Source of the DNA: Oligoflexus sp.
Lineage (GTDB): Bacteria > Bdellovibrionota_B > Oligoflexia > Oligoflexales > Oligoflexaceae
Assembly (NCBI GenBank): GCA_041736305.1
Contig: JBGSTX010000335.1
Coordinates: forward strand, 1-12,831
Length of the DNA: 12,831 nucleotides
Direction: 5' to 3'
Shown here piece after piece: positions 1,652 to 12,831 of this stretch (position 1 is its first letter; each line of letters begins with the position of its first letter). The translations under genes and the position numbers were made by a program. The notes under the pieces were generated by a model. The model searched no databases. It had not been told where the DNA came from and saw only the letters and a program-made list of their open reading frames with translations.

Positions 1652-2986
1652 TTAAAAAGTCCGTGGGGACGCAGCAAAAAACTCTCTTTCGAGCGGCCGA
1701 CCAAAGAGCAGTCTCTCTGGAAGATCTTGTAAGGTCCTGGCACCACTCGCGAGCATCGCAATCTCCAGAGCGCGTTTAAATCCTGCTAGCACTTCGAGAG
1801 GAGCTTCTTCGCTCTGCAAGGCCGCCCGCAGCAAGGGCAGACCTATGCCTGCGCACTGAGCGCCGAGGGCCACAGCTTTGGCAACTGTCACACCATTGCG
1901 GATCCCGCCCGTAGCTATGAGCGGTACATGCGGCAGACTACGGCGGACGGCGGCGAGACTGTATGCGGTTGGAATTCCCCAGTTGCGAAACGCTTGCCCC
2001 AGTTCCTGGACGAGCGGTGAACGGCTTCTCAGACCTTCGATATGAGCCCAGGAAGTACCGCCGCTGCCGCCGACATCGATGGCTGAAACGCCTAGTTCTA
2101 CAAGGCGACGCGCGCTGCCGGGACTGATTCCAGCACCCACTTCTTTAATCATGACAGGCACGCGCAGATGTCGGCAGATCCGCTCAAGCTGCTGCATAAA
2201 GCCTGTAAAATGGCGGTCACCTTCAACCTGGACGCTCTCTTGAACGAGATTGAGATGAATGGCCAAAGCATCGGCCTCTATCATGTCGACAGCGCGCTGA
2301 CAGCGATCCAGCGCTTCGGCATTGGTAAGTTGAGCCATCCCGATGTTGCCGATCAGAAAAAGTTGCGGCGCGAAATTCTTGACCTTGAAAATAGCGGCAT
2401 ATTCCGGATTATCAAGTGCAATACGCTGCGAGCCGACCCCCATGGGAATACCGTAGCGCGATGCAGCCAAGGCCAGACGACGATTGATTTCACTGCCCTC
2501 ATGAATGCCACCTGTCATGCCGGTTATCAGCAGCGGCAAATCAAAAGTACGTCCAAATATAGATGTTTTGGTGTCAAGTTGACTTGATTCAATCAGAGGT
2601 AGAGCTTCGGGCATGAGACTGATCTGATCGAAGCCAGTGAAGCGATCACTGGCTTCAACATCGCTGTCACGACAGATCCCGATATGCTGGCCTTTGCGCA
2701 GTTGGCCAAGTAGGCGCTCAAGCTCTTCGCGCGGAGCGGCTGCAGAGAGTAAGAGGAGCCAGGAAATAGAGTCGGAATGACGCTGCCACTGACCTTCGAA
2801 GTGGAAGGTCTGACGTTCATCGAGGCGTACAGCCACGGATTGGGGAAGAGGCTTTTCGAAGGTGGAATCGCCGAATTGCAGGAGTACGCTCTCCTTGCCG
2901 AGGCCTACTACCCAGCCGCTAAGACCCGACTGGGAGATCCATGGCAGGGGGCGATCGAGTTTGATAAGATCCATCGTTCCGGTCAA
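1652..2986 (-). CDS. fni: Type 2 (FMN-dependent) isopentenyl-diphosphate delta-isomerase with an extra N-terminal domain
   Basis: IDI-2 motifs RKGQHI, ITGMTGG, GVGSQR, IGNIG, HLNLVQESVQVEGD, KEVG, GSGGTSW, WGIPT and TGGIR. Start moved from 3082 to TTG 2986 because AAGGAGGT (2998-2991) lies just upstream and the longer ORF would overlap the divergent gene at 3061. ATG 2974 is an alternative start. Confidence 0.95.
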   Translation of the reverse strand: MTGTMDLIKLDRPLPWISQSGLSGWVVGLGKESVLLQFGDSTFEKPLPQSVAVRLDERQTFHFEGQWQRHSDSISWLLLLSAAAPREELERLLGQLRKGQHIGICRDSDVEASDRFTGFDQISLMPEALPLIESSQLDTKTSIFGRTFDLPLLITGMTGGIHEGSEINRRLALAASRYGIPMGVGSQRIALDNPEYAAIFKVKNFAPQLFLIGNIGMAQLTNAEALDRCQRAVDMIEADALAIHLNLVQESVQVEGDRHFTGFMQQLERICRHLRVPVMIKEVGAGISPGSARRLVELGVSAIDVGGSGGTSWAHIEGLRSRSPLVQELGQAFRNWGIPTAYSLAAVRRSLPHVPLIATGGIRNGVTVAKAVALGAQCAGIGLPLLRAALQSEEAPLEVLAGFKRALEIAMLASGARTLQDLPERLLFGRPLEREFFAASPRTF

Positions 2987-3060
2987 GCAGACCTCCTTCT
3001 CTGATCCCGGAGGATGTACCACAGAAGTGGCTCGCAAAGCGAGCTGATAGGAGATCCACG

Positions 3061-3384
3061 ATGCTACGCATAATCTTTGCAAGCTTCTGCTGCATACTGG
3101 CTTCCAACGCCTGGTCAGCGACGAGCACGAATAAGACGGAAATCGTCGAAGAAGCGGATAAGACGGAAGTCAAAATCTTCTGCTCGAAGAGCTCCGAACG
3201 GGAAGCCTTGGCCCTCTGTGAGAAGTGGCTAGGGCAGCAGGAAAAAAGGTTAGGACAGCGTCTCTTGACCAGCTATTGCAGCAGTGGGGAGCTCTCGTCC
3301 AATCCAAGTTGTCTCTATAAGAGCAGCGGCGAGTTAAAGTACGTACTTCGCAAGTATCGCACGGAAACGGAGAGGGTTTTTTGA
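3061..3384 (+). CDS. Small exported hypothetical protein (signal peptide, 4 Cys in the mature part)
   Basis: AGGAG SD before the ATG. MLRIIFASFCCILASNAWS/A looks like a Sec signal peptide with an A-W-S cleavage site. Its stop overlaps the next start (TGATG). Confidence 0.8.
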   Translation: MLRIIFASFCCILASNAWSATSTNKTEIVEEADKTEVKIFCSKSSEREALALCEKWLGQQEKRLGQRLLTSYCSSGELSSNPSCLYKSSGELKYVLRKYRTETERVF

Positions 3385-4258: not shown

Positions 4259-4771
4259 TTAGCTCTTAAGATTACAAGCCATACGATCAGGAGGAGGCGA
4301 CGAGCAAGCACTTCCTTCACTCTCACTAGTACTATCAAAGGGACAAAGTTTCCCTATCTTACTGATCTCTCCATAGTCCGACTTAAAGCGGATAATGCGG
4401 CAGCAGCTCTTGTTTTCTGCCACCAATCCATCGTTTTGATAAACCTCAATTTCAGCATTGTACCAGGCATTCGGCGTTATCCCGATAGCGGTATCCACCG
4501 TGTAATCAGCATAGGATTTCGCGCTGATCGACTTGCCACAGACATCCAGCAGGCGCAATGTCAATTTGACTTTGTTGAAGGATTTTGGCTTGGGGTCTAG
4601 CTTGCTGATCCTAAGGTTGCTTTGCATCGAGACCTTGTTCGGATCGTCGCTAGTATTCGGCTTAGAAACACTCGGCGCCAAAATTTCCACCTCTTCGCGA
4701 GGCGTCCGACAAGACAGTGCCAAGCTCATAATAAAGCTGCCTAGTAGCAGGATGCGGAGGTCGCCCAACAT
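4259..4771 (-). CDS. Hypothetical lipoprotein, Cys-rich
   Basis: Hydrophobic N-terminus ending in the lipobox-like LALS/C, then a Pro/Ser linker and six further Cys. GAAGGGA SD. Lies 12 bp downstream of the co-oriented lipoprotein gene. Confidence 0.72.
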   Translation of the reverse strand: MLGDLRILLLGSFIMSLALSCRTPREEVEILAPSVSKPNTSDDPNKVSMQSNLRISKLDPKPKSFNKVKLTLRLLDVCGKSISAKSYADYTVDTAIGITPNAWYNAEIEVYQNDGLVAENKSCCRIIRFKSDYGEISKIGKLCPFDSTSESEGSACSSPPPDRMACNLKS

Positions 4772-4783
4772 CGACTGTTCCCT

Positions 4784-5308
4784 TCAGGGATAAGTGCACT
4801 TTTGGTTGGCAATTTTCATTAGCTCTTCAGCCGTCTCATTTTTTATAGCATTCTCATCCGTTGGACGACGATACTTCGCCATAGAATAAGACTCGAAGAC
4901 CAGTATCTCTTGGCCCTCATTGTAAGCAAAGATTTGAATCGAGGGAACCGTGGCCCTGAAATGATAGGCCTCGACGATAGGGGCTTTCGCGACCTCGCCA
5001 ATCCACTTTTTCACTTGATCAGCTTGAGCGACGTCCGCGCTCGTCACCACGCACTCATAGTGCTGAGCCTTCGGATCTTCCTTGGACAATGCTCCCACGA
5101 CTTTCTTCAGTAGTAGTTCGCTACTGGTGGCTACTGCAGACGCGTCTGCGGTTTTTCCCTGCTCCACGGGGCTACCCTCCGAATCGGCCAAGGCTTGATT
5201 TTGAGTGGGCGCTGCTCCCTGGTCCGCGGGACCCGGTGAAGGCGTCTTTCGTACCGTTTTACAGCAGCTGAGAGCAAGAGCAGCGATGAAAAGGACTTGG
5301 GTTCTCAT
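4784..5308 (-). CDS. Hypothetical lipoprotein
   Basis: MRTQVLFIAALALS/CC lipobox, an Ala/Pro/Gln-rich tether, then a ~110-aa domain with two Cys. GAGG SD upstream. Confidence 0.82.
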   Translation of the reverse strand: MRTQVLFIAALALSCCKTVRKTPSPGPADQGAAPTQNQALADSEGSPVEQGKTADASAVATSSELLLKKVVGALSKEDPKAQHYECVVTSADVAQADQVKKWIGEVAKAPIVEAYHFRATVPSIQIFAYNEGQEILVFESYSMAKYRRPTDENAIKNETAEELMKIANQKCTYP

Positions 5309-5424
5309 AAAATCCTCGATGCAATACCTGACGCAAACCGAATTTTAATATTCTAACAGAGAAAGATGTCACTGGCTGGCAAAAAGGGGGAAAGCTAGTT
5401 TGGGGGCCAGGAAGAGGAGGATTT

Positions 5425-5811
5425 ATGCAAATTTGGCTCCAATGGGGATTTCTTGCTTTTTGGCTAGGCCTGGAGTTGAAGGCCTGGGCAACCTGGGAAA
5501 ACCTCAGCCTCCACCTCAGACAGATCTGGGAAGAGGACTATCAGCAATTAGCCTGTGGACAGCTCGCAGCCCTGGAGAAAAATCTCGAAACAGGACGGGA
5601 CTTTCTAGTCCGCCGTCACCCACGCGCCGCCTATGAAATGCATTTAAAAGAGCTTGAAGAAGAGGCCCTTGCGGGCTGGCAGGAAGCCCTCTCGTCCACC
5701 TGTTTGGAAAGGCCCTCGAAGGGCTTCGAGCTCTACCGGCAAGTTAATCCTGAACTGGCTGCGGACTATCCCAACTGGTGGGTGCATTGGCGCGTTCCCG
5801 CACATGAATAA
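5425..5811 (+). CDS. Membrane-anchored hypothetical protein, possible divergent Tad pseudopilin
   Basis: Strong GAGGAGG SD. N-terminal hydrophobic segment followed by LGLELKAW, and two Cys. First gene of an overlapping run that ends in a secretin. The ORF is well supported, but the function is inferred from context. Confidence 0.6.
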   Translation: MQIWLQWGFLAFWLGLELKAWATWENLSLHLRQIWEEDYQQLACGQLAALEKNLETGRDFLVRRHPRAAYEMHLKELEEEALAGWQEALSSTCLERPSKGFELYRQVNPELAADYPNWWVHWRVPAHE

Positions 5812-6139
5812 GTTGCACGCACGCGCTCCAGAAGAAGGGCACATTGCAGCGTGCCTCTTGCTCGTATTCACTCTCAGCTTGGAGCTGACCCATTATCTAG
5901 TCTCCCGCAGCGTTCTTAAGCAGTGGGAAGCTAGCTACCAGAGTCTGAATCAAAAAAGCCAAGACCTAGACCAGGAACTCCCGGGAAACTTCGAAGCCTG
6001 GGGTCAAGAATGGCCCGAGCTGCCCCCTCGCATCGACTTCGGGGCTTTTACAAAACGTGAGGGAGAAGCTGAAGCACTATGTTTTTATCTCAGATCCGCG
6101 CCGCCCGAAAATGGTGGCAGAACTTATCTTTGCAATTGA
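5804..6139 (+). CDS. Putative TadE/TadG-like pseudopilin
   Basis: Start moved from 5654 to ATG 5804 (ATGAATAA overlap with the previous stop). MNKLHARAPEEG/HIAACLLLVFTLSLEL has a short hydrophilic leader ending in Gly followed by a hydrophobic helix, as in prepilin-peptidase substrates. Glu+5 is absent. Confidence 0.55.
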   Translation: MNKLHARAPEEGHIAACLLLVFTLSLELTHYLVSRSVLKQWEASYQSLNQKSQDLDQELPGNFEAWGQEWPELPPRIDFGAFTKREGEAEALCFYLRSAPPENGGRTYLCN

Positions 6140-6543
6140 GCTGGAAGCAACTGCCACCGCTGACGAGCCACAGCATTGCATTTCTCGCAGGCACCCTCCT
6201 CTTGCGGCCACAGCCCAACGTCGACTCAGCCTTTCCACAGAAAGGCACCAAACTGCTCGTTCCCGCCGAGCGTATCTTAGCGCGGAGTAAATTGAAGTTC
6301 GACCTCTTTAAAAGCCCTCTTTTCACCCTCGTTAGAAGTGAAGGCCAAGGGGGCTGCCGCCTGAGTCCGGAGGACTATAAGATTTGGGCTTCTCCTGGGG
6401 TAAAGCCCCAGTATTTTTTGCAGATACCTCATGAGAAGGCCGCTATCGGGGTTCTACGCGTCCTCCTCGAAGATAAGCAGTTAATCTTGAAGCCCTCTTC
6501 AAGCAAACTTCAGCCCTGTACCGCTGAGGTGTTCTATGACTAG
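6079..6543 (+). CDS. Hypothetical membrane-anchored protein, possible degenerate CpaB/RcpC
   Basis: Hydrophobic stretch SIAFLAGTLLL, then SAFPQKGTKLLVP, loosely resembling the 'iP-x-G-x-r-a-v' start of RcpC domains. Sits immediately before the secretin, the usual cpaB position. Alternative start at TTG 6136 (TTGA overlap). Confidence 0.5.
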   Translation: MFLSQIRAARKWWQNLSLQLSWKQLPPLTSHSIAFLAGTLLLRPQPNVDSAFPQKGTKLLVPAERILARSKLKFDLFKSPLFTLVRSEGQGGCRLSPEDYKIWASPGVKPQYFLQIPHEKAAIGVLRVLLEDKQLILKPSSSKLQPCTAEVFYD

Positions 6544-7894
6544 GCTTCGCTTGTTTACATTCATGCTGCAGCTCTGCTGTTTTTCCCGGGGCTCGTTCGC
6601 CGAAAATACCATTAAAAAAGACATTCCCCACGAGAAAATTCTGCTCCAGTTAGGTAGTAGCCAGGAGATTCAGTTAGCTCCCGAGAGTTCTCTCCGTCTC
6701 AGTCAGAAGAAAATAGTAGAAATAGAAACGCTGAGCCCAGAGCGCTTTCGGCTCCTGGCGGTACGCAAGGGTATCGTCTACCTACGAGCGCTCAGTGCCG
6801 AAGGACTTCTCCTTCGCAGCTGGCTGCTGGAAGTCGAAGCTCCCTCTCCTCAGGAGCTAAAAGCCGAAGAAAATGAGGAGGAATGGTATGCGGCCTTCTG
6901 TCTAGAAAAAGGTGTCAGCTGCGTGAGAACAAGTCGAACTGTAAGGGGTGAAACCGAGTCCCTTTCCTGGTTGCACCGCATGCGGAAACGCTGTGAAAAA
7001 GAGCCGCCTTGCCGCTTTGAAGTTCAGCTGAGCGCCGCCGCTCAGGATCGATGGCGAGACACTCTCGAGCAGGAGTGGGGGCAGGGGCCGCTCGAGCTTG
7101 CTGCGGATGGTTTCGTTATCAGCCGCAGCTCTTGCAAAAAAGACGATACAGCGAGCCTCAAGACCGCCGTTGAAAGCTTTAGAAATCTCTTGGCAACAAG
7201 GTACGGAGCACCCTTCATCCAGCCTTGTCGCCGACAGGAACAGGAGGCCTACGTTCTGGATATCGTAGCCCTTGCCCAAAGAAGCGACGGTGCCCAGCGC
7301 GACAATCCTCTCGACTGGCAGGGTCTTGCCTTGCCTCCTGAACTGCCGTTTAAAGCGCTTATTCGTGGTCTTTCCGAATCGGGTCGCGCACATATCTTGG
7401 CCCAGCCTTTGGTGCAGCTGAGCGAAGGGGGGGAAGTTCTTATCTCTGATGGTTTTGAAATCCAGACTCTAGCCTATGCGGACGGCAGAAGCGAAAGTGC
7501 TTGGAAAGCTGTGGGCTTCACCCTCCGCTGTGCCTATCTCGAACAGAGGGAAGACAAGGCTCACGTGAAGATCGAACTCCAGCTGAGTCGGCCCCGCTCG
7601 GGGAACCTCGACATGAGCCGTCTCGAGACCGAGACCTGGCTGAAACTCCAGCAATGGCAGCTCGTAGGCCGGATTCAAGCTCGTACGGACGGTGAAGAAC
7701 ATTCCGCGCTCCCTTGGTTCGTGTCGATCCCTTTTCTGGGACCTCTTTTTCGCTGGAGCGTCGATCAAAAAGCGACGAGTGAGGTATCGCTCTTTGTCAG
7801 AATGCGCAGCCTGAACGCCGAGTTCGATCAAAGTCAGACAAAAATCGACGAGCTGGGCCAGATTCGCCTTAAAGCGGAGTCTGCTGCCCCTTGA
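6536..7894 (+). CDS. Secretin, CpaC/RcpA (Tad) type, divergent
   Basis: Signal peptide ending in SFA. The N-domain ILLQLGSSQEIQL...IVEIETLSPERFRLLAVRKGIVYL resembles the pilus-formation N-terminal domain of CpaC/RcpA. The C-terminus has secretin signatures LSESGRAHILAQPLVQLSEGGE, GFEI, VGFTL, LPWFVSIPFLGPLFR and SEVSLFV. Confidence 0.85.
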   Translation: MTRLRLFTFMLQLCCFSRGSFAENTIKKDIPHEKILLQLGSSQEIQLAPESSLRLSQKKIVEIETLSPERFRLLAVRKGIVYLRALSAEGLLLRSWLLEVEAPSPQELKAEENEEEWYAAFCLEKGVSCVRTSRTVRGETESLSWLHRMRKRCEKEPPCRFEVQLSAAAQDRWRDTLEQEWGQGPLELAADGFVISRSSCKKDDTASLKTAVESFRNLLATRYGAPFIQPCRRQEQEAYVLDIVALAQRSDGAQRDNPLDWQGLALPPELPFKALIRGLSESGRAHILAQPLVQLSEGGEVLISDGFEIQTLAYADGRSESAWKAVGFTLRCAYLEQREDKAHVKIELQLSRPRSGNLDMSRLETETWLKLQQWQLVGRIQARTDGEEHSALPWFVSIPFLGPLFRWSVDQKATSEVSLFVRMRSLNAEFDQSQTKIDELGQIRLKAESAAP

Positions 7895-8876
7895 GCTCAT
7901 GATAAGGTTGATTCCAACGGAAGGGGATCACGTGATCGAGCGATGAGTGCCCGAGAAGGAGGGCCAGCAAGCGATCGAAACCTAGAGCATTGCCGCAGGA
8001 AGATGGCAAACCTTTAGCTAAAGCCGCATAGAAATCCAGGTCATCAGGTACAGCAGCTAAACCCAAAGCTCTTCGCTGCTCATGACTCTTTTGAATGCGC
8101 TCGACGTTGATCTGTGGATCGGTCAGTTCGTCAAAGGCATTGCAGAGTTCCACACCCTTCAAATAAAGCTCAAAGCGCTGCGCCCTTTGATCCAGAACCC
8201 GCGCCAAGGCACACTGGGAAGCTGGGTAATCGTAGAGGAAGACCGCGTCGAGCTTTCTAAGCTCCGGTTCGATGACATCGATAAGGATCTTAAAATAAGC
8301 ATCTTCAAAGCTGTCGTCTTCCCGAATCGAGCCATAGCCGAGCGCTCGACCTTTGGCGGCTAGATTCTGGTCACCGTCCACGAGGTCGATGCGTGCCCAG
8401 CGCGTGAAAGCTTCGAAGATAGAAATGCGAGAAATTTCAGCGGGAGGTATCCAGGTGTCGGCATAGAAACGCTTCAAGGTCTGCGCTACTTCAGAAACCA
8501 TCTCTTGGGTAAGGTCCATAAATTTCGGCAGAGAAATGCCTGCTTCATACCATTCGAGCATAGTGAACTCGGGATGGTGCCAGGGGCTCAGCTCACCCCC
8601 GTTTCTAAAGCATTTACCGAGCTGATAGACCCGGCCGAGTCCTTGGGCTAGAGCCTGCTTCAGATGAAGTTCGGGACTTGAGCGAAGAAAGAGTGGATGC
8701 TTTTTTCCGGCAAAATCCACCCAGTCGCTCGCAAAGTAGCGAAGATGAACTTCTGTTCCTGGGCTCAGAACGGCGATAGGGGTATCGATGGAAAGATACC
8801 CCCTTGCCCTGAGAAAACTATGTATAGCGTCCTGAAGGAGCTGGCGCGCTTCAAGGACGCTTCGAAGAGTTTGCAT
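7869..8876 (-). CDS. epmA: EF-P lysine aminoacylase (EpmA/GenX/PoxA)
   Basis: Class II LysRS-like catalytic domain with no anticodon-binding domain: LRSSPELHLK, FRNGGELSPWHHPEFTMLEWY, YDYPASQCALA, RFELY, ELCNAFDELTD, GNALGFDRL. Start moved to ATG 8876 (GAGGA SD, 13 bp after the upstream stop), giving 335 aa. Confidence 0.95.
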   Translation of the reverse strand: MQTLRSVLEARQLLQDAIHSFLRARGYLSIDTPIAVLSPGTEVHLRYFASDWVDFAGKKHPLFLRSSPELHLKQALAQGLGRVYQLGKCFRNGGELSPWHHPEFTMLEWYEAGISLPKFMDLTQEMVSEVAQTLKRFYADTWIPPAEISRISIFEAFTRWARIDLVDGDQNLAAKGRALGYGSIREDDSFEDAYFKILIDVIEPELRKLDAVFLYDYPASQCALARVLDQRAQRFELYLKGVELCNAFDELTDPQINVERIQKSHEQRRALGLAAVPDDLDFYAALAKGLPSSCGNALGFDRLLALLLGHSSLDHVIPFRWNQPYHELKGQQTPL

Positions 8877-8889
8877 CGCGTCCTCAATC

Positions 8890-11391
8890 TCAGTCGTGCT
8901 CGACGGATTTGACCTTGTCGAGCCAACGAACAATCTTGTCCAGAGCGCTGCCCTTAGCAATTTTGTCGTTTTTATGAACGTCTTTGATGCCGAGAGGAGT
9001 CCCTGTCGCTATCTCAAAGGCTTCGGAAATATGCCGCACAGGTACGACCTTGAGGCGACCCGCCGCCACCGCTTCCCTAGCTTTTTTATGCAGCATGAGA
9101 TTCTGGACGTTGGCATGCGGAATGATGACCGTATAGTCCTTGCTCTTACCAATCAGCTCGCAGATCTTGTAGAAACCTTCGATCTTTTCGTTCACACCAC
9201 CGATGGTCTGCACGTCACCGAACTGGTTCATTGAACCCGTAATTGCCAGGTTTTGCTTGATTGGAATGTGGGAAAGCGAACTCAAAATAGCCAAAACCTC
9301 GGCAAGAGTCGCGCTGTCCCCATCGATCGGACCGTAGCTCTGCTCAAAAGCCACGCTGGCGCCGAAGCTATAGACCCGCTCGCGCGGCAGCAGCACTTTG
9401 AAGAAGCCGCCGATGATCATGACAGCCTTGCCGTGCAGCTTGCCCGACATCCGCGCTTCACGCTCGATGTTCATGATCCCGCGTTTGCTGGGCCAGGTGG
9501 TGCAGGTGATCCGGCTGATCTTGCCGAAGGAATAGTCCGCGTAGTCGTAAACAGCCAGACCATTGATCTGACCCACGCGCAGTCCATCGACGCTGATGAG
9601 GATGTCCTGCTGTTTGATCAGACGAAAGAGATATTCTTCCTGCAAATTGAGTCGATAGTACTTGAGGTCCAGCGCCTGCTCAACATCCTCGCGCTTGACG
9701 ACGGTATGCCCCTGCTCTTTGGCGATGAAGTCGGCTTCGATCGTCAAGTCCTTGATTTCGCCGAACTGGGTTGAGAGCAGATTCTGATCTTCGATCAAGC
9801 GCGAGCCATATTCAACGATCGCTGCCACGCCCGAGCGGTCGAAGGGCAAGAGCTCCTCAAGATGCGCGCGGGTTGCGATGAAGGAGACGTAGGCGTGAAC
9901 GTTCTCGGGAGAGCGCTCCATTTTGAAGTCAAAATCAGCTTTGATCTTGAATATCTTTTGGAACTCTTCGTCTTCTTGATAGAGGACGTGGTAGATCTCG
10001 TCAGTCCCGATCAGGATAACCTTAAGTTCGAGCGGCACCGGATCAGGCCGTAGACCAGAGGTCGGCAGCAGCGAATACTGCTCGCCCATATCTTCGATGA
10101 AACCCTTGCGATTGCGCAGGATGCGCTTCAACGATTCCCAGATATTGCCAGTCCGAAAAATATCGATAGCGTTGAGGACGAGGTAGCCACCGTTGGCCTT
10201 GTGGATCGATCCTGCTTTGATCATCGTAAAGTCGGTGAGATACATGCCATGTTCGACGTTTTTTTCGATCTTGCCGAAGAGGTTGTAGTAGGTGGGATTG
10301 TTTTCGATGATGACCGGAGCTTTTTCGGTTTTGCTGTTATCGACGAATACGTTGATCTTGTATTTGGTGAACTTATCTTTGTCTTCAATACTGTAAAGAG
10401 CGTCTTCGGCAGTGGCGCTGCCACTGTCCTCTTCGACGAACTCGAGGAGGTTTTCCTTAACGTCTTCCGTAACTTGATCCAGATATTCGAGAATATCCGA
10501 AAATTCCGCATATTCTTCGGCCAGCGGCTGGATGAGAGCCTTGATGATCTGCTCGCCGATGGAGTTGCGCAGATTCTCCAGCTGTTCGCTCATATCCTTG
10601 TCGATAGCCCGGACCTTGCGGGCGAAGTCGAGCACTTCGGGCTCGAGTTCTGATCGTCTGCCTTCGATTTCCTGACGCTCGTCTTCGTTGAGCTTGGAAT
10701 AATCCCGCTCCGTCAGAGGCCTGCCGTCCATAACCGGGATGGTTTCGATACCGACGCGGGTCGACTTGATGACGAAATCATTGGTCTTGGCCGATTTCTC
10801 TAGATCACTGAAGAGCTTTGACTTGATGTCGTTAGCTGAGGATATGTAGGTATTGACGGCATTTTCGTAGTCTTCACTCTGGAGAGCGACCGGAATTTCG
10901 GAACGCAGAGCTTTGACCAGCAGCTCCATGTTCTTTTTGAGTTTGCGGCCTTCACCACGCGGTAGCTTGATGATCTTCGGCACTTCAGTATCGGCGAAGT
11001 TGTAGATGTAGATCCAGTCGCTAGGTTGCTGAGAATGCGCTGACCAGCGTTCGAGGAACTGCCTGATGACACTGGTCTTGCCAGTGCCCTCAATTCCTGC
11101 AACGTATATATTATAGCCTGGCCGCTGGATCGACAGCCCCATGTTGATCGCTCGGATAGCTCGATCCTGCGCAATGATGTCATGCGAAGGTTCAAGCGCC
11201 TGAGTCGTCTTAAACTGAAAATTGTCGCTCGCACAGTTGGCATATACCTGGCTGGCATCAAGCGGTTCCGCCGGATACTGGATAGGGTTTTCCGGGTAGG
11301 ACTGGCTTACTTGCTTGGGAAGAGATGTAGCGACTTTCGAAGTGCGGGACTTGGAACTGGGTTTTGATTTTTTTTGGGGGGAGCGGCTCAA
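8890..11391 (-). CDS. Lon-like protease, LonC/YcbZ type (AAA-like module with helical insertions plus S16 protease domain)
   Basis: AQDRA, Walker A GIEGTGKT, DWIYIYNF, NPTYYNLFGKIE, GSIHKANGGYLVL, VGQINGL, FEQSYGPIDGDSA (catalytic Ser) and GGVNEKIEGF with the Lys exactly 43 residues after the Ser. TTG start with GGAG upstream. Confidence 0.93.
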   Translation of the reverse strand: MSRSPQKKSKPSSKSRTSKVATSLPKQVSQSYPENPIQYPAEPLDASQVYANCASDNFQFKTTQALEPSHDIIAQDRAIRAINMGLSIQRPGYNIYVAGIEGTGKTSVIRQFLERWSAHSQQPSDWIYIYNFADTEVPKIIKLPRGEGRKLKKNMELLVKALRSEIPVALQSEDYENAVNTYISSANDIKSKLFSDLEKSAKTNDFVIKSTRVGIETIPVMDGRPLTERDYSKLNEDERQEIEGRRSELEPEVLDFARKVRAIDKDMSEQLENLRNSIGEQIIKALIQPLAEEYAEFSDILEYLDQVTEDVKENLLEFVEEDSGSATAEDALYSIEDKDKFTKYKINVFVDNSKTEKAPVIIENNPTYYNLFGKIEKNVEHGMYLTDFTMIKAGSIHKANGGYLVLNAIDIFRTGNIWESLKRILRNRKGFIEDMGEQYSLLPTSGLRPDPVPLELKVILIGTDEIYHVLYQEDEEFQKIFKIKADFDFKMERSPENVHAYVSFIATRAHLEELLPFDRSGVAAIVEYGSRLIEDQNLLSTQFGEIKDLTIEADFIAKEQGHTVVKREDVEQALDLKYYRLNLQEEYLFRLIKQQDILISVDGLRVGQINGLAVYDYADYSFGKISRITCTTWPSKRGIMNIEREARMSGKLHGKAVMIIGGFFKVLLPRERVYSFGASVAFEQSYGPIDGDSATLAEVLAILSSLSHIPIKQNLAITGSMNQFGDVQTIGGVNEKIEGFYKICELIGKSKDYTVIIPHANVQNLMLHKKAREAVAAGRLKVVPVRHISEAFEIATGTPLGIKDVHKNDKIAKGSALDKIVRWLDKVKSVEHD

Positions 11392-11453
11392 GTTCGATAC
11401 TTCTCCGAGTTACGACCTGAAGCCGGTCCCTATCTTGGGGCTCAGCTCAGGTC

Positions 11454-12164
11454 TTAAACAAATACATCCATGACTTCGGTGAGTCTGAAGTCTCCTGCCA
11501 CTTCATTAAGCTTAGGAGACAAGTCGAACTCCATGGCCGCAGGCTTCAATCTCAGCAAAAGGTTGGTTAGAAATTTCTCACCTTTGCCATTTGCTTCCGT
11601 GAGAAAATAGTCTCCATAGGCATCAAGAAAGTCAAGCGCGTCTTCTACTGATTCTCGACTAGGTGAGTCCATGAGGTGTTGAATACCCCTTTGTAACCAC
11701 TGCGAGAGTTCTTGGAAATTGATGCGCTCCTTGATGCCAATCCGCAGGCAGTCATTGCAGATACGGCTTTTAATGTCGCAAGGGAGCAACTTGATATAGT
11801 TCCCGTAGGTATAATTCAAGGTGCGGTAAGCGCCCCGACGATTTTTGGACATCTCCATGCTACGGACTTTATCCATCACCTGCTCGTAAGCACCGATAGC
11901 TGCCACGATAGCCTTACGCTCGCGTTCCTGCAACGCTTCAAGCGCAGCTTTGTGGCGATCGCGGAGAACCATATAAGCTTTGTGGACTTCGTTATAGCTC
12001 AAAGGATCGTGGACATCTGGATTTTTGCTGATAGCCTCTGTCAGAACCTCCACTACGTGGGGCACTTTAGTGCTCGTTTGTTCAGCGATTTGGACCAAGC
12101 TCCATTTGACCCCATCTGGCCAAATTCTGAGCGCGCGTTCCAAATCCAAAATAAAATCCAGCAT
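11454..12164 (-). CDS. Hypothetical all-alpha cytoplasmic protein
   Basis: 236-aa ORF with AAGGGGG SD before TTG-ATG (ATG 12164 preferred) and a good promoter upstream. No signal peptide. Co-oriented with the Lon-like gene. Confidence 0.85.
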   Translation of the reverse strand: MLDFILDLERALRIWPDGVKWSLVQIAEQTSTKVPHVVEVLTEAISKNPDVHDPLSYNEVHKAYMVLRDRHKAALEALQERERKAIVAAIGAYEQVMDKVRSMEMSKNRRGAYRTLNYTYGNYIKLLPCDIKSRICNDCLRIGIKERINFQELSQWLQRGIQHLMDSPSRESVEDALDFLDAYGDYFLTEANGKGEKFLTNLLLRLKPAAMEFDLSPKLNEVAGDFRLTEVMDVFV

Positions 12165-12238
12165 CAACGCCCCCTTAGAAAAAAAGGAAATAAGCGAGAA
12201 CTAAGCTCTTAGAAATTCTTAATTTTGCTCTTTGAAAT

Positions 12239-12267
12239 AGCTTACTGAGGAGCGGTTGGAATTGCAA
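12239..12267 (-). promoter_or_regulatory. Sigma70-like promoter for the hypothetical-lonC-epmA run
   Basis: Minus strand reads TTGCAA (12267-12262), 17 bp, TAAGCT (12244-12239), with A-rich sequence upstream of the -35. Confidence 0.6.
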
Positions 12268-12449
12268 AGATTTTGGAATAGATTGGCGCAGCCGGAGTGA
12301 GGTAGGTTGCGGCATCTCTGTGGAAGCTGAACAGTAAATGATCCTTCCTTGGTTTTCTGCAAGTTGAACTTTTTTTTTAAAGGGTGGAGTCGCGAAGCCT
12401 TTGGGCTATCGATATTTGCTAGAAGAGGAGAAAAAGATGGGGATGGAGG

Positions 12450-12494
12450 CCAGAGAGAAACAGAGGCGGAACTCCACTGAAGTGAGAACCGCTC
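12450..12494 (-). terminator. Possible intrinsic terminator of the small basic ORF transcript
   Basis: Minus-strand imperfect hairpin GAGCGGTTCTCAC-TTCA-GTGGAGTTCCGCCTC followed by the pyrimidine run TGTTTCTCTCT. The U tract is imperfect. Confidence 0.4.
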
Positions 12495-12499
12495 GTAGT

Positions 12500-12556
12500 G
12501 ACTGTCTCACGAACAATAAATGAAACAGTCGACAGAGGGGTCTTGCAACTCCCTCT
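12500..12556 (-). other. Two adjacent stem-loops in the 3' UTR of the small basic ORF
   Basis: AGAGGG-A-GTT-GCAA-GAC-CCCTCT (12556-12534, GNRA tetraloop) and GACTGTTTCA-N11-TGAGACAGTC (12530-12500, 10-bp stem). Each has a G-U pair that forms only on the minus-strand RNA. Confidence 0.6.
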
Positions 12557-12570
12557 CAACTTATCGTCAC

Positions 12571-12675
12571 TTATTTCGAGCGCAATGCCCGACGCTGACG
12601 CATCATGCGACGCTTCTTGCGACCGACCTTACGACGACCTTTGGGATGCTTTCTTTTATGTCTTGAGCCGTGCAA
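12571..12675 (-). CDS. 34-aa highly basic small protein, MHGSRHKRKHPKGRRKVGRKKRRMMRQRRALRSK
   Basis: Below the ORF-track length cutoff. TTG start with GGAG SD 6 nt upstream and a TAA stop. 11 Arg, 7 Lys, 3 His, no Asp/Glu. Eight of 11 Arg codons are CGT/CGC. Has its own promoter and 3' hairpins. Confidence 0.8.
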   Translation of the reverse strand: MHGSRHKRKHPKGRRKVGRKKRRMMRQRRALRSK

Positions 12676-12715
12676 TGTTCACTCCACACGCTAAAGGTTA
12701 GTGACGAGAGGCAGG

Positions 12716-12744
12716 AGCCTACCCAGTCGTTTCTCAAAAGGCAA
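12716..12744 (-). promoter_or_regulatory. Sigma70-like promoter of the small basic ORF
   Basis: Minus strand reads TTGCCT (12744-12739), 17 bp, TAGGCT (12721-12716). An A tract (CAACAAAAATC) lies upstream and GC-rich CCTGCC follows the -10. Confidence 0.6.
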
Positions 12745-12831
12745 GATTTTTGTTGCTCCTGAGAACCTTCCCAGGGCACACTGTCAATATAACTTTATCA
12801 CTAGTTACTATGCTAGGCGCACGATTCGAGC

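Follow-up and report, generated by a model that had tools for sequence, protein, structure and literature searches.

Very small, strongly basic ribosomal proteins probably act by filling pockets in ribosomal RNA (rRNA). bS22 of mycobacteria, Bacteroidota and Borrelia, with its eukaryotic analogues mS38/Cox24 and eL41, forms a class of peptides of ~30-33 residues with an isoelectric point (pI) above 12 and more than half lysine or arginine (PMC10618245, PMC7797042, PMC10081302). The Borrelia report describes a bS22 that is unannotated, GUG-initiated, 61% lysine/arginine and changed by one substitution across the genus, and its authors predict further such genes (PMC10618245). The Flavobacterium protein has 30 residues and a pI of 12.7 and is a structural, not a clear sequence, homologue of mycobacterial bS22 (PMC7797042). 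According to a third report, bS22 is dispensable in M. smegmatis, and peptides of the bS22 type are connected with the decoding centre and with susceptibility to aminoglycosides (PMC10081302). Here we describe a gene for a 34-residue peptide at the right end (12571-12675, minus strand) of a stretch of Oligoflexus sp. DNA, called the window below, which is a complete contig of 12,831 bases from a 5.02-Mb genome that is 92.7% complete. The peptide represents a new family of the tiny hyper-basic kind and is probably ribosomal.

The product of the gene is MHGSRHKRKHPKGRRKVGRKKRRMMRQRRALRSK. Of its 34 residues, 18 are lysine or arginine and three are histidine, with no aspartate or glutamate; the mass is ~4.3 kDa and the computed pI is 12.0, which is the ceiling of the method, so that the true value is at least 12. 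A preliminary description of this DNA had given exactly this length and composition, to which we add only the TTG start codon. When the peptide was used as a translated query, stop-free matches with 73-97% identity (E ≤ 1e-9) were found in 39 of 41 genomes, the source genome and its relatives. The search was extended to the GTDB phylum-level clade Oligoflexia (Oligoflexales and Silvanigrellales), for which 131 genomes were searched in all; exactly one match without internal stops was present in 125 of them (E ≤ 1e-3), and the gene was present in 79 of the 83 that are at least 90% complete. When codons 2-32 of 36 distinct coding sequences were compared in 630 pairs, the mean proportions of synonymous (pS) and nonsynonymous (pN) differences were 0.716 and 0.099, giving a pN/pS of 0.14, and the numbers of variable columns at codon positions 1, 2 and 3 were 17, 6 and 28 of 31. 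An alignment of 19 distinct peptides (A1) has a mean column identity of 90% and shows 23 of the 34 residues without any change, among them His2, Gly3, Ser4, His6, His10, Pro11, Gly13, Gly18, Met24 and Met25. The preliminary description had expected a real gene to conserve its HPKGRRKVGRKKRR core with synonymous-biased substitutions, and this is the pattern that the 125 genomes, the pN/pS value and the alignment display. The signals for translation are retained as well. Across 55 distinct loci (65 fetched, minus 10 duplicates of the same place) the position of the start codon is fixed while the codon itself varies (GTG in 33, TTG in 18 and ATG in 4), and a Shine-Dalgarno (SD) core, GGAG, GAGG or AGGA, lies 5-8 nt upstream in 51 of them (searched within 16 nt). 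Moreover, a scan of the 5.02-Mb genome for hyper-basic open reading frames (ORFs; 22-48 residues, at least 45% lysine/arginine, at most one acidic residue) returned 30 start/ORF combinations, and only the peptide gene combined a well-placed GGAG with a clean frame. The ORF is a real, self-contained protein gene under purifying selection.

To our knowledge, the characterised proteins that are this small and this highly charged are ribosomal. We favour the reading that the peptide is built constitutively into the ribosome, embedded in RNA, and is specific to Oligoflexia; by our estimate this reading stands about an even chance of being right. It draws on four properties: size and charge, conservation comparable to that of bL34 and bL36, a codon choice resembling that of the ribosomal-protein cluster, and the standing of the gene as the sole well-formed hyper-basic mini-gene of its genome. 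With respect to the first, the peptide has the marks of the bS22 class, namely 34 residues, more than 50% lysine/arginine, a pI at the ceiling and near-invariance within its clade. With respect to the second, the window peptide is 91% identical to that of genome G025 and 76% identical to that of the Silvanigrellales genome G125; in the same two distant genomes, bL34 stands at 73% and 66-71% and bL36 at 86% and 89%. In these pairwise comparisons the conservation of the peptide is on par with that of the two canonical proteins. With respect to the third, its synonymous codons fit the S10-spc-alpha cluster better than the genome as a whole (mean log-ratio 0.107 per codon, in a test built on 33 codons); the value has P = 0.0018 when genome-wide usage is assumed, and with the usage of ribosomal-protein genes it is unremarkable. 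In the mechanism we propose, the gene would be driven by a promoter of the sigma-70 type preceded by an A tract, and translation would pair a strong SD with a weak start codon (TTG or GTG). A C-terminal basic helix (residues ~19-33) and a nearly invariant basic N-terminal arm containing proline and glycine (residues 2-18) would then bind an rRNA pocket, neutralise the rRNA helices and lock them together, which would place the peptide in the functional class of bS22/eL41/mS38, bL34, bL36 and bL37. For the peptide itself we infer RNA binding, ribosome association and the identity of the pocket.

The likeness to bS22 extends beyond composition. Both are nearly invariant within a phylum, stand-alone and often unannotated, and the GUG start of Borrelia bS22 has its counterpart in the GTG and TTG starts of most peptide loci. 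However, there is no detectable sequence relationship between the two, since the bS22/mS38/COX24_C family PF08213 is silent at E ≤ 10 and no solved chain was matched. Unlike bS22, the peptide carries an invariant arm, MHGSRH.RKHPKGRRK.G, with proline and glycine, which is predicted to be non-helical. On sequence grounds, the peptide family is not an ordinary bS22. The bS22 site is the 30S pocket formed by h2, h27, h44 and h45, and occupation of the same site by the peptide is putative. It is a tentative proposal, which we regard as possible though short of probable, that the peptide is an undescribed ribosomal protein family found only in Oligoflexia, unrelated in sequence to bS22, that sits in the h44/h45 pocket convergently or in another rRNA pocket. 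If so, the family would merit a new bS/bL number, and there would be a hint that its synthesis is regulated or autoregulated, both in the invariant histidine-rich N-terminal arm (H2, H6, H10) and in a start codon that is almost never ATG. If the peptide is ribosomal, it would be another lineage-specific protein of the bacterial ribosome systematically missed by gene callers, and the list of peptides in rRNA pockets (bS22, bL37, bL38, bTHX) would gain a family whose sequence shows no detectable relation to those already on it, which bears on how often such pockets have been filled independently in evolution.

Several results weigh against a ribosomal role. Scans of the peptide against Pfam and NCBIfam gave no family at E ≤ 10, and hence no link to a ribosomal one. 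Against the chain sequences of the PDB, phmmer with the single peptide gave one chance match only (a His-tagged Get2 fragment, E = 1.1), and hmmsearch with a 19-sequence profile gave none at E ≤ 10. PF08213 likewise had no match at E ≤ 10 in the whole of the source genome. Three clade members with genomes of good quality, G130 (98% complete, 9 contigs), G041 (94%) and G042 (96%), yielded no copy of the gene even by profile; this means that it is dispensable or replaced in some lineages, and in the genus of G130 it is present in 12 of 13 genomes. The dispensability of bS22 in M. smegmatis would fit this apparent absence. The invariant Pro11, Gly13 and Gly18 in the N-terminal half would sit poorly in the published bent helix of bS22, and the small number of codons behind the codon-use test belongs here too. 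Evidence at the RNA level is also thin: contig X2, from an RNA library (metatranscriptome), covers 12532-12682 and weakly suggests transcription of the peptide gene, but it is one short contig of 151 nt with a depth of 2, from a library that possibly contains DNA. Its single difference from the window, at 12628, reads as a synonymous third-position change. Contigs of two further runs cover 12632-12820 (X1, whose kind is guessed) and the whole stretch at ~99% identity (X3, kind unknown), and X3 may be the sample from which the window came; the comparison used three runs and contigs only, and stretches without cover are uninformative in it.

The remaining family tests concern which known protein the peptide could be. 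In five complete relatives PF08213 had no match at the peptide locus, the best match (E = 0.03) lying antisense inside a gene for a 596-residue protein. These searches found no rival occupant of the bS22 role, as there was no bS22 of the PF08213 type elsewhere in the source genome or in the five relatives. The PF08213 test is incomplete, however, because the control passed the cut-off in one of 14 named genomes and the family was silent on the Bacteroides control, so that bS22 of the Bacteroidota or Borrelia type may be missed. The eL41 family (PF05162) gave no match in Pfam at E ≤ 10, and a search of 11300-12831 against Rfam at E ≤ 1 gave no family. The preliminary description had been unable to assign the peptide to a named family, and with Pfam, NCBIfam, Rfam and PDB chains all silent the same holds for us. 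Among protein-language-model neighbours, a cluster of 31-residue sequences of which 26% belong to PF08213 scored 0.88 and eL41 scored 0.86, where 0.9 is the threshold for a lead. The AlphaFold2 (AF2) model of the peptide (predicted local distance difference test, pLDDT, 86) has a helix at 5-9, a loop at 10-18 and a helix at 19-33. Foldseek found no match to this model, and a wide VIA-align search gave 22 chains with Z of 2.0-2.8, all of them unrelated helices. The language-model neighbours and the AF2 model are weak leads only.

Other small basic ribosomal proteins were also compared. Like the peptide, bL34 (RpmH, PF00468) is tiny and arginine-rich, and is itself embedded in rRNA. Within the same genome, residues 16-28 of bL34 and residues 2-14 of the peptide share a local HG[FS]R-x5-P-x-GR likeness, which is not significant. 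A paralogue derived from bL34 was rejected: hhalign gave a probability of 1.9% (P = 0.026), 67 of 1000 composition-preserving shuffles scored as well, and the bL36 control was negative. A search of the source genome with PF00468 at E ≤ 1 listed the canonical rpmH on contig C155 (79 bits), the peptide locus being unlisted, and profile comparison of the peptide with bL36 gave nothing. bL36, bS21, bL37 and bTHX resemble the peptide in size class, in charge and probably in acting as fillers of rRNA pockets. Canonical genes for bL34, bL36 and bS21 occur elsewhere in all five genomes checked, and therefore the peptide replaces none of the three, while bL37 and bTHX are set apart from it only by the absence of any Pfam match. 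As an aside on rpmJ, the genome bin (G000) holds two copies of secY-adk-rpmJ-rpoA with slightly different protein sequences, on contigs C385 (16709-16819) and C158 (2056-2166), which suggests that the bin mixes strains or is contaminated (its stated contamination is 2.66%).

The peptide gene lies in a minus-strand unit whose A tract, TTGCCT-17-TAGGCT promoter, C/G-rich stretch, GGAG and ORF had been listed in the preliminary description, and each of these items is present in the sequence. Since the window is the whole contig, only 156 nt upstream of the start codon are visible. The features of the locus are as follows.

12571-12675, minus strand: coding sequence of the peptide, 34 codons, with TTG start at 12673-12675 and TAA stop at 12571-12573 (from the ORF listing and conservation)
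12682-12685, minus strand: Shine-Dalgarno GGAG, with 6 nt between it and the TTG start
12686-12715, minus strand: stretch from the -10 to the SD with a C/G-rich start, CCTGCCTCTCG, from 12715; probable 5' untranslated region
12716-12721, minus strand: -10-like hexamer TAGGCT, footprinted in relatives and uncalled by the consensus scanner
12736-12751, minus strand: A tract (12747-12751) and -35 region, TCTTGCCTTTT, with core TTGCCT at 12739-12744 and a 17-nt spacer to TAGGCT
12775-12787, strand unassigned: genus-conserved box of 13 nt, TTGACAGTGTGCC, ~30 nt upstream of the peptide -35
12500-12556, minus strand: two hairpins 3' of the gene, at ~12534-12556 and ~12500-12530, from an RNA fold, with no U tract
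12239-12267, minus strand: separate promoter-like site of the next gene, TTGCAA-17-TAAGCT, kept in genus and family loci
11454-12164, minus strand: neighbouring gene for a 236-residue all-alpha protein, a context feature downstream of the peptide gene

Both promoter hexamers are conserved upstream of the gene in relatives. In 15 aligned upstream regions, from nine loci of the same genus and six of the same family, AAAA-TCTTGCnTTTT is almost invariant and TA(G/A)nnT stands at a constant place, with a freely varying spacer. As aligned, this conservation of the -35 and -10 is the phylogenetic footprint of the promoter. The consensus scanner was silent on it because TAGGCT matches TATAAT at only three of six positions. 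The motif A3+/TCTTGCnTTT/13-17/TAnnnT occurs once in the genome, at the peptide locus, and therefore no regulon is definable from it. The C/G-rich stretch between the -10 and the SD is kept in loci of the same genus, and outside it, in the family, the likeness is loose; a role as a GC-rich discriminator marking stringent control is putative. The box TTGACAGTGTGCC is invariant in nine loci of the same genus. Its reading frame differs between two close relatives, so that it is probably non-coding, and a promoter or operator serving the divergent HAMP gene described below is one possibility for it. At the 3' end, the hairpins named in the preliminary description are present in the fold; they are unconserved, as relatives differ in both the length and the sequence of the region beyond the stop, and with no U tract they are not canonical terminators. 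Against that description, the scanner called no intrinsic terminator on the peptide strand in the window, and the 408-nt 3' stretch folds no better than its shuffles (z = -1.1). By a rule of hairpin plus T run within 220 nt after the stop, terminator-like sites occur in 26 of 65 loci versus 18 of 65 on the opposite strand, and the window has none.

The alternative that survives best is that the peptide binds polyanions outside the ribosome, as a protamine- or histone-like nucleoid compactor, a general RNA chaperone, or a polyphosphate- or membrane-binding peptide. Its composition, with 18 lysines and arginines and three histidines in 34 residues, is suited to such a task, and protamines and bacterial histone-like basic proteins share its extreme arginine/lysine content and lack of acidic residues. 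The gene moreover stands alone, outside any operon of translation genes in most loci; it is missing from the three good genomes named above, and it matches no ribosomal family. However, binders driven by charge usually conserve composition and not sequence, whereas here 23 of 34 positions are invariant with strong purifying selection, and this position-specific conservation points to a fixed, shaped binding site. Unlike protamines, the peptide is conserved to a very high degree and position by position, and no DNA-binding family was matched. The match to bL34 and bL36 in degree of conservation and the likeness to the ribosomal-protein cluster in codon choice likewise argue against a general polyanion binder, which we consider rather unlikely. 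The preliminary description had left the choice between a lineage-specific ribosomal protein and a protamine-like one: a lineage-restricted, hyper-basic gene missed by annotation is what we find, and of its two roles the ribosomal one is favoured rather than demonstrated.

The ribosomal reading has also to be set beside the possibility that the peptide works with its neighbours. In 51 of the 55 distinct loci the peptide gene is followed, on its own strand, by the gene for the 236-residue protein, a gene for a LonB/LonC-like protease is nearby in 41, and a divergent gene for a small HAMP-domain membrane protein is present in 49 (in the window it is cut by the contig end). The window's own LonB/LonC-like protease (8890-11391, minus strand) has 833 residues and AAA_32, LonB lid, LonC helical and Lon_C matches, and is far below the equivalog cut-offs. 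The 236-residue protein has no match in Pfam or NCBIfam; 60 homologues were found, nearly all of 236 residues and unnamed. Its AF2 model (pLDDT 93) is all-alpha and resembles helical repeats (TPR/14-3-3/SNAP-like), and Foldseek gave no significant match, its best E value being 0.013 for repeats of designed, TPR-, 14-3-3- or SNAP-like type.

Helical-repeat folds often hold peptides. The peptide could accordingly be a ligand, a substrate, a regulator resembling a degradation tag, or an adaptor for the 236-residue protein and the LonB/LonC-like protease, in keeping with the frequent proximity of the three genes, the mildly acidic character of the 236-residue protein (pI 4.9-6.3) and its predicted helical-repeat fold. 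The peptide gene and the 236-residue gene are nevertheless separate units: ~75-90 nt before its ATG, the 236-residue gene has a promoter-like site of its own, CTTTGCAnTTC ... AGTAAGCT, which is kept across loci of the genus and the family, and the spacer between the genes is variable. In Silvanigrellales the peptide gene stands alone between convergent and divergent unrelated genes, with an ATG or GTG start and an AGGAGG SD, and in genome G125 it is ~170 kb from the sole weak match to the neighbour (E = 5.8e-4), yet the peptide keeps its identity of about three quarters to that of the window. As synteny is lost in this order, the function of the peptide must be autonomous. Moreover, weak matches to the neighbour persist in the two families of the clade that lack the peptide. 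Co-folding of the peptide with the 236-residue protein scored 0.01 against a mark of 0.32, without controls, and is evidence neither way. We regard a partnership of this kind as improbable. Within Silvanigrellales, one genus has rpsI, which encodes uS9, tail-to-tail with the peptide gene (L078, 4224-4616, plus strand, and 4946-5056, minus strand), and in another a gene for an Rsm22-like small-subunit methyltransferase is 1 kb away (L076, 2880-3863, minus strand); both are single observations and are suggestive at most.

That the ORF is a regulatory leader peptide or upstream ORF controlling the next gene is far less probable still. In Oligoflexales it is a short ORF upstream of a conserved gene on the same strand, with hairpins after its stop and weak start codons, as a leader would be. 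However, conservation across the class extends to the amino-acid sequence itself and is not confined to the frame; the ~240-400-nt spacer is unconserved and is followed by the separate conserved promoter; and in Silvanigrellales no cistron on the same strand follows the peptide gene. The variable spacer, the promoter of the next gene and the isolated gene of Silvanigrellales largely refute a leader or attenuator ORF.

Last, a chance ORF or a conserved non-coding element in place of a protein gene is hardly credible: the absence of the peptides of the window and five relatives from a collection of ~15 billion proteins (exact look-up), the omission of the ORF from gene calls and a yield of only seven representatives out of 1.84 billion in a profile search would suit it, and the 17/6/28 pattern over codon positions with its low pN/pS, the 125 genomes free of stops and frameshifts, the retained SD and start position, the silence of Rfam and five of the seven representatives, in which the same frame was called with a spurious extension at the N terminus, all speak for a gene.

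The seven representatives all belong to the same family, none of them being distant, and their sources give either no name or "hypothetical protein". The literature searched, on bS22, on Oligoflexia ribosomal proteins and on Silvanigrella ribosomes, yielded no description of the peptide. The gene is essentially unannotated and unnamed, and as a single-copy gene of 34 codons in 125 of 131 Oligoflexia genomes it deserves entry into annotation pipelines. Two peptide patterns scanned over 185,579 species genomes found 29 loci, titled Oligoflexaceae, Oligoflexales, Oligoflexus, Pseudobacteriovorax, Silvanigrellales and Silvanigrella, and no other group was matched. Within the genomes covered, the gene is restricted to the lineage Oligoflexia and is almost unchanged across the class. 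A few labels of metagenome-assembled genomes among the peptide loci differ (Polynucleobacter, Bdellovibrio sp. and Deltaproteobacteria). Those labelled Polynucleobacter sp. and Bdellovibrio sp. ZAP7 (L047, L048 and L063) carry an Oligoflexales-type peptide together with the usual neighbours, and their labels are probably mis-assignments or the result of mis-binned contigs. Some Silvanigrellaceae isolates are reported to come from human infections.

Beyond the peptide locus, the window contains several genes that are recorded here as side observations. An EpmA/GenX-like EF-P lysine aminoacylase (7869-8960, minus strand) scores 283.6 bits against a cut-off of 286.9, and its ORF overlaps that of the LonB/LonC-like protease by 71 nt as called. 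A secretin-family protein (6536-7894, plus strand) is indicated by a weak Pfam match of 29.7 bits and is preceded by several ORFs without a family (4259-6139). Near the other end, a gene for HMG-CoA reductase adjoins one for a 476-residue protein resembling dehydrogenases dependent on flavin mononucleotide (FMN), at 221-1468 and 1652-3082, both on the minus strand; the two may form a mevalonate-pathway pair, in which the FMN-dependent protein could be an enzyme like type 2 isopentenyl diphosphate isomerase.

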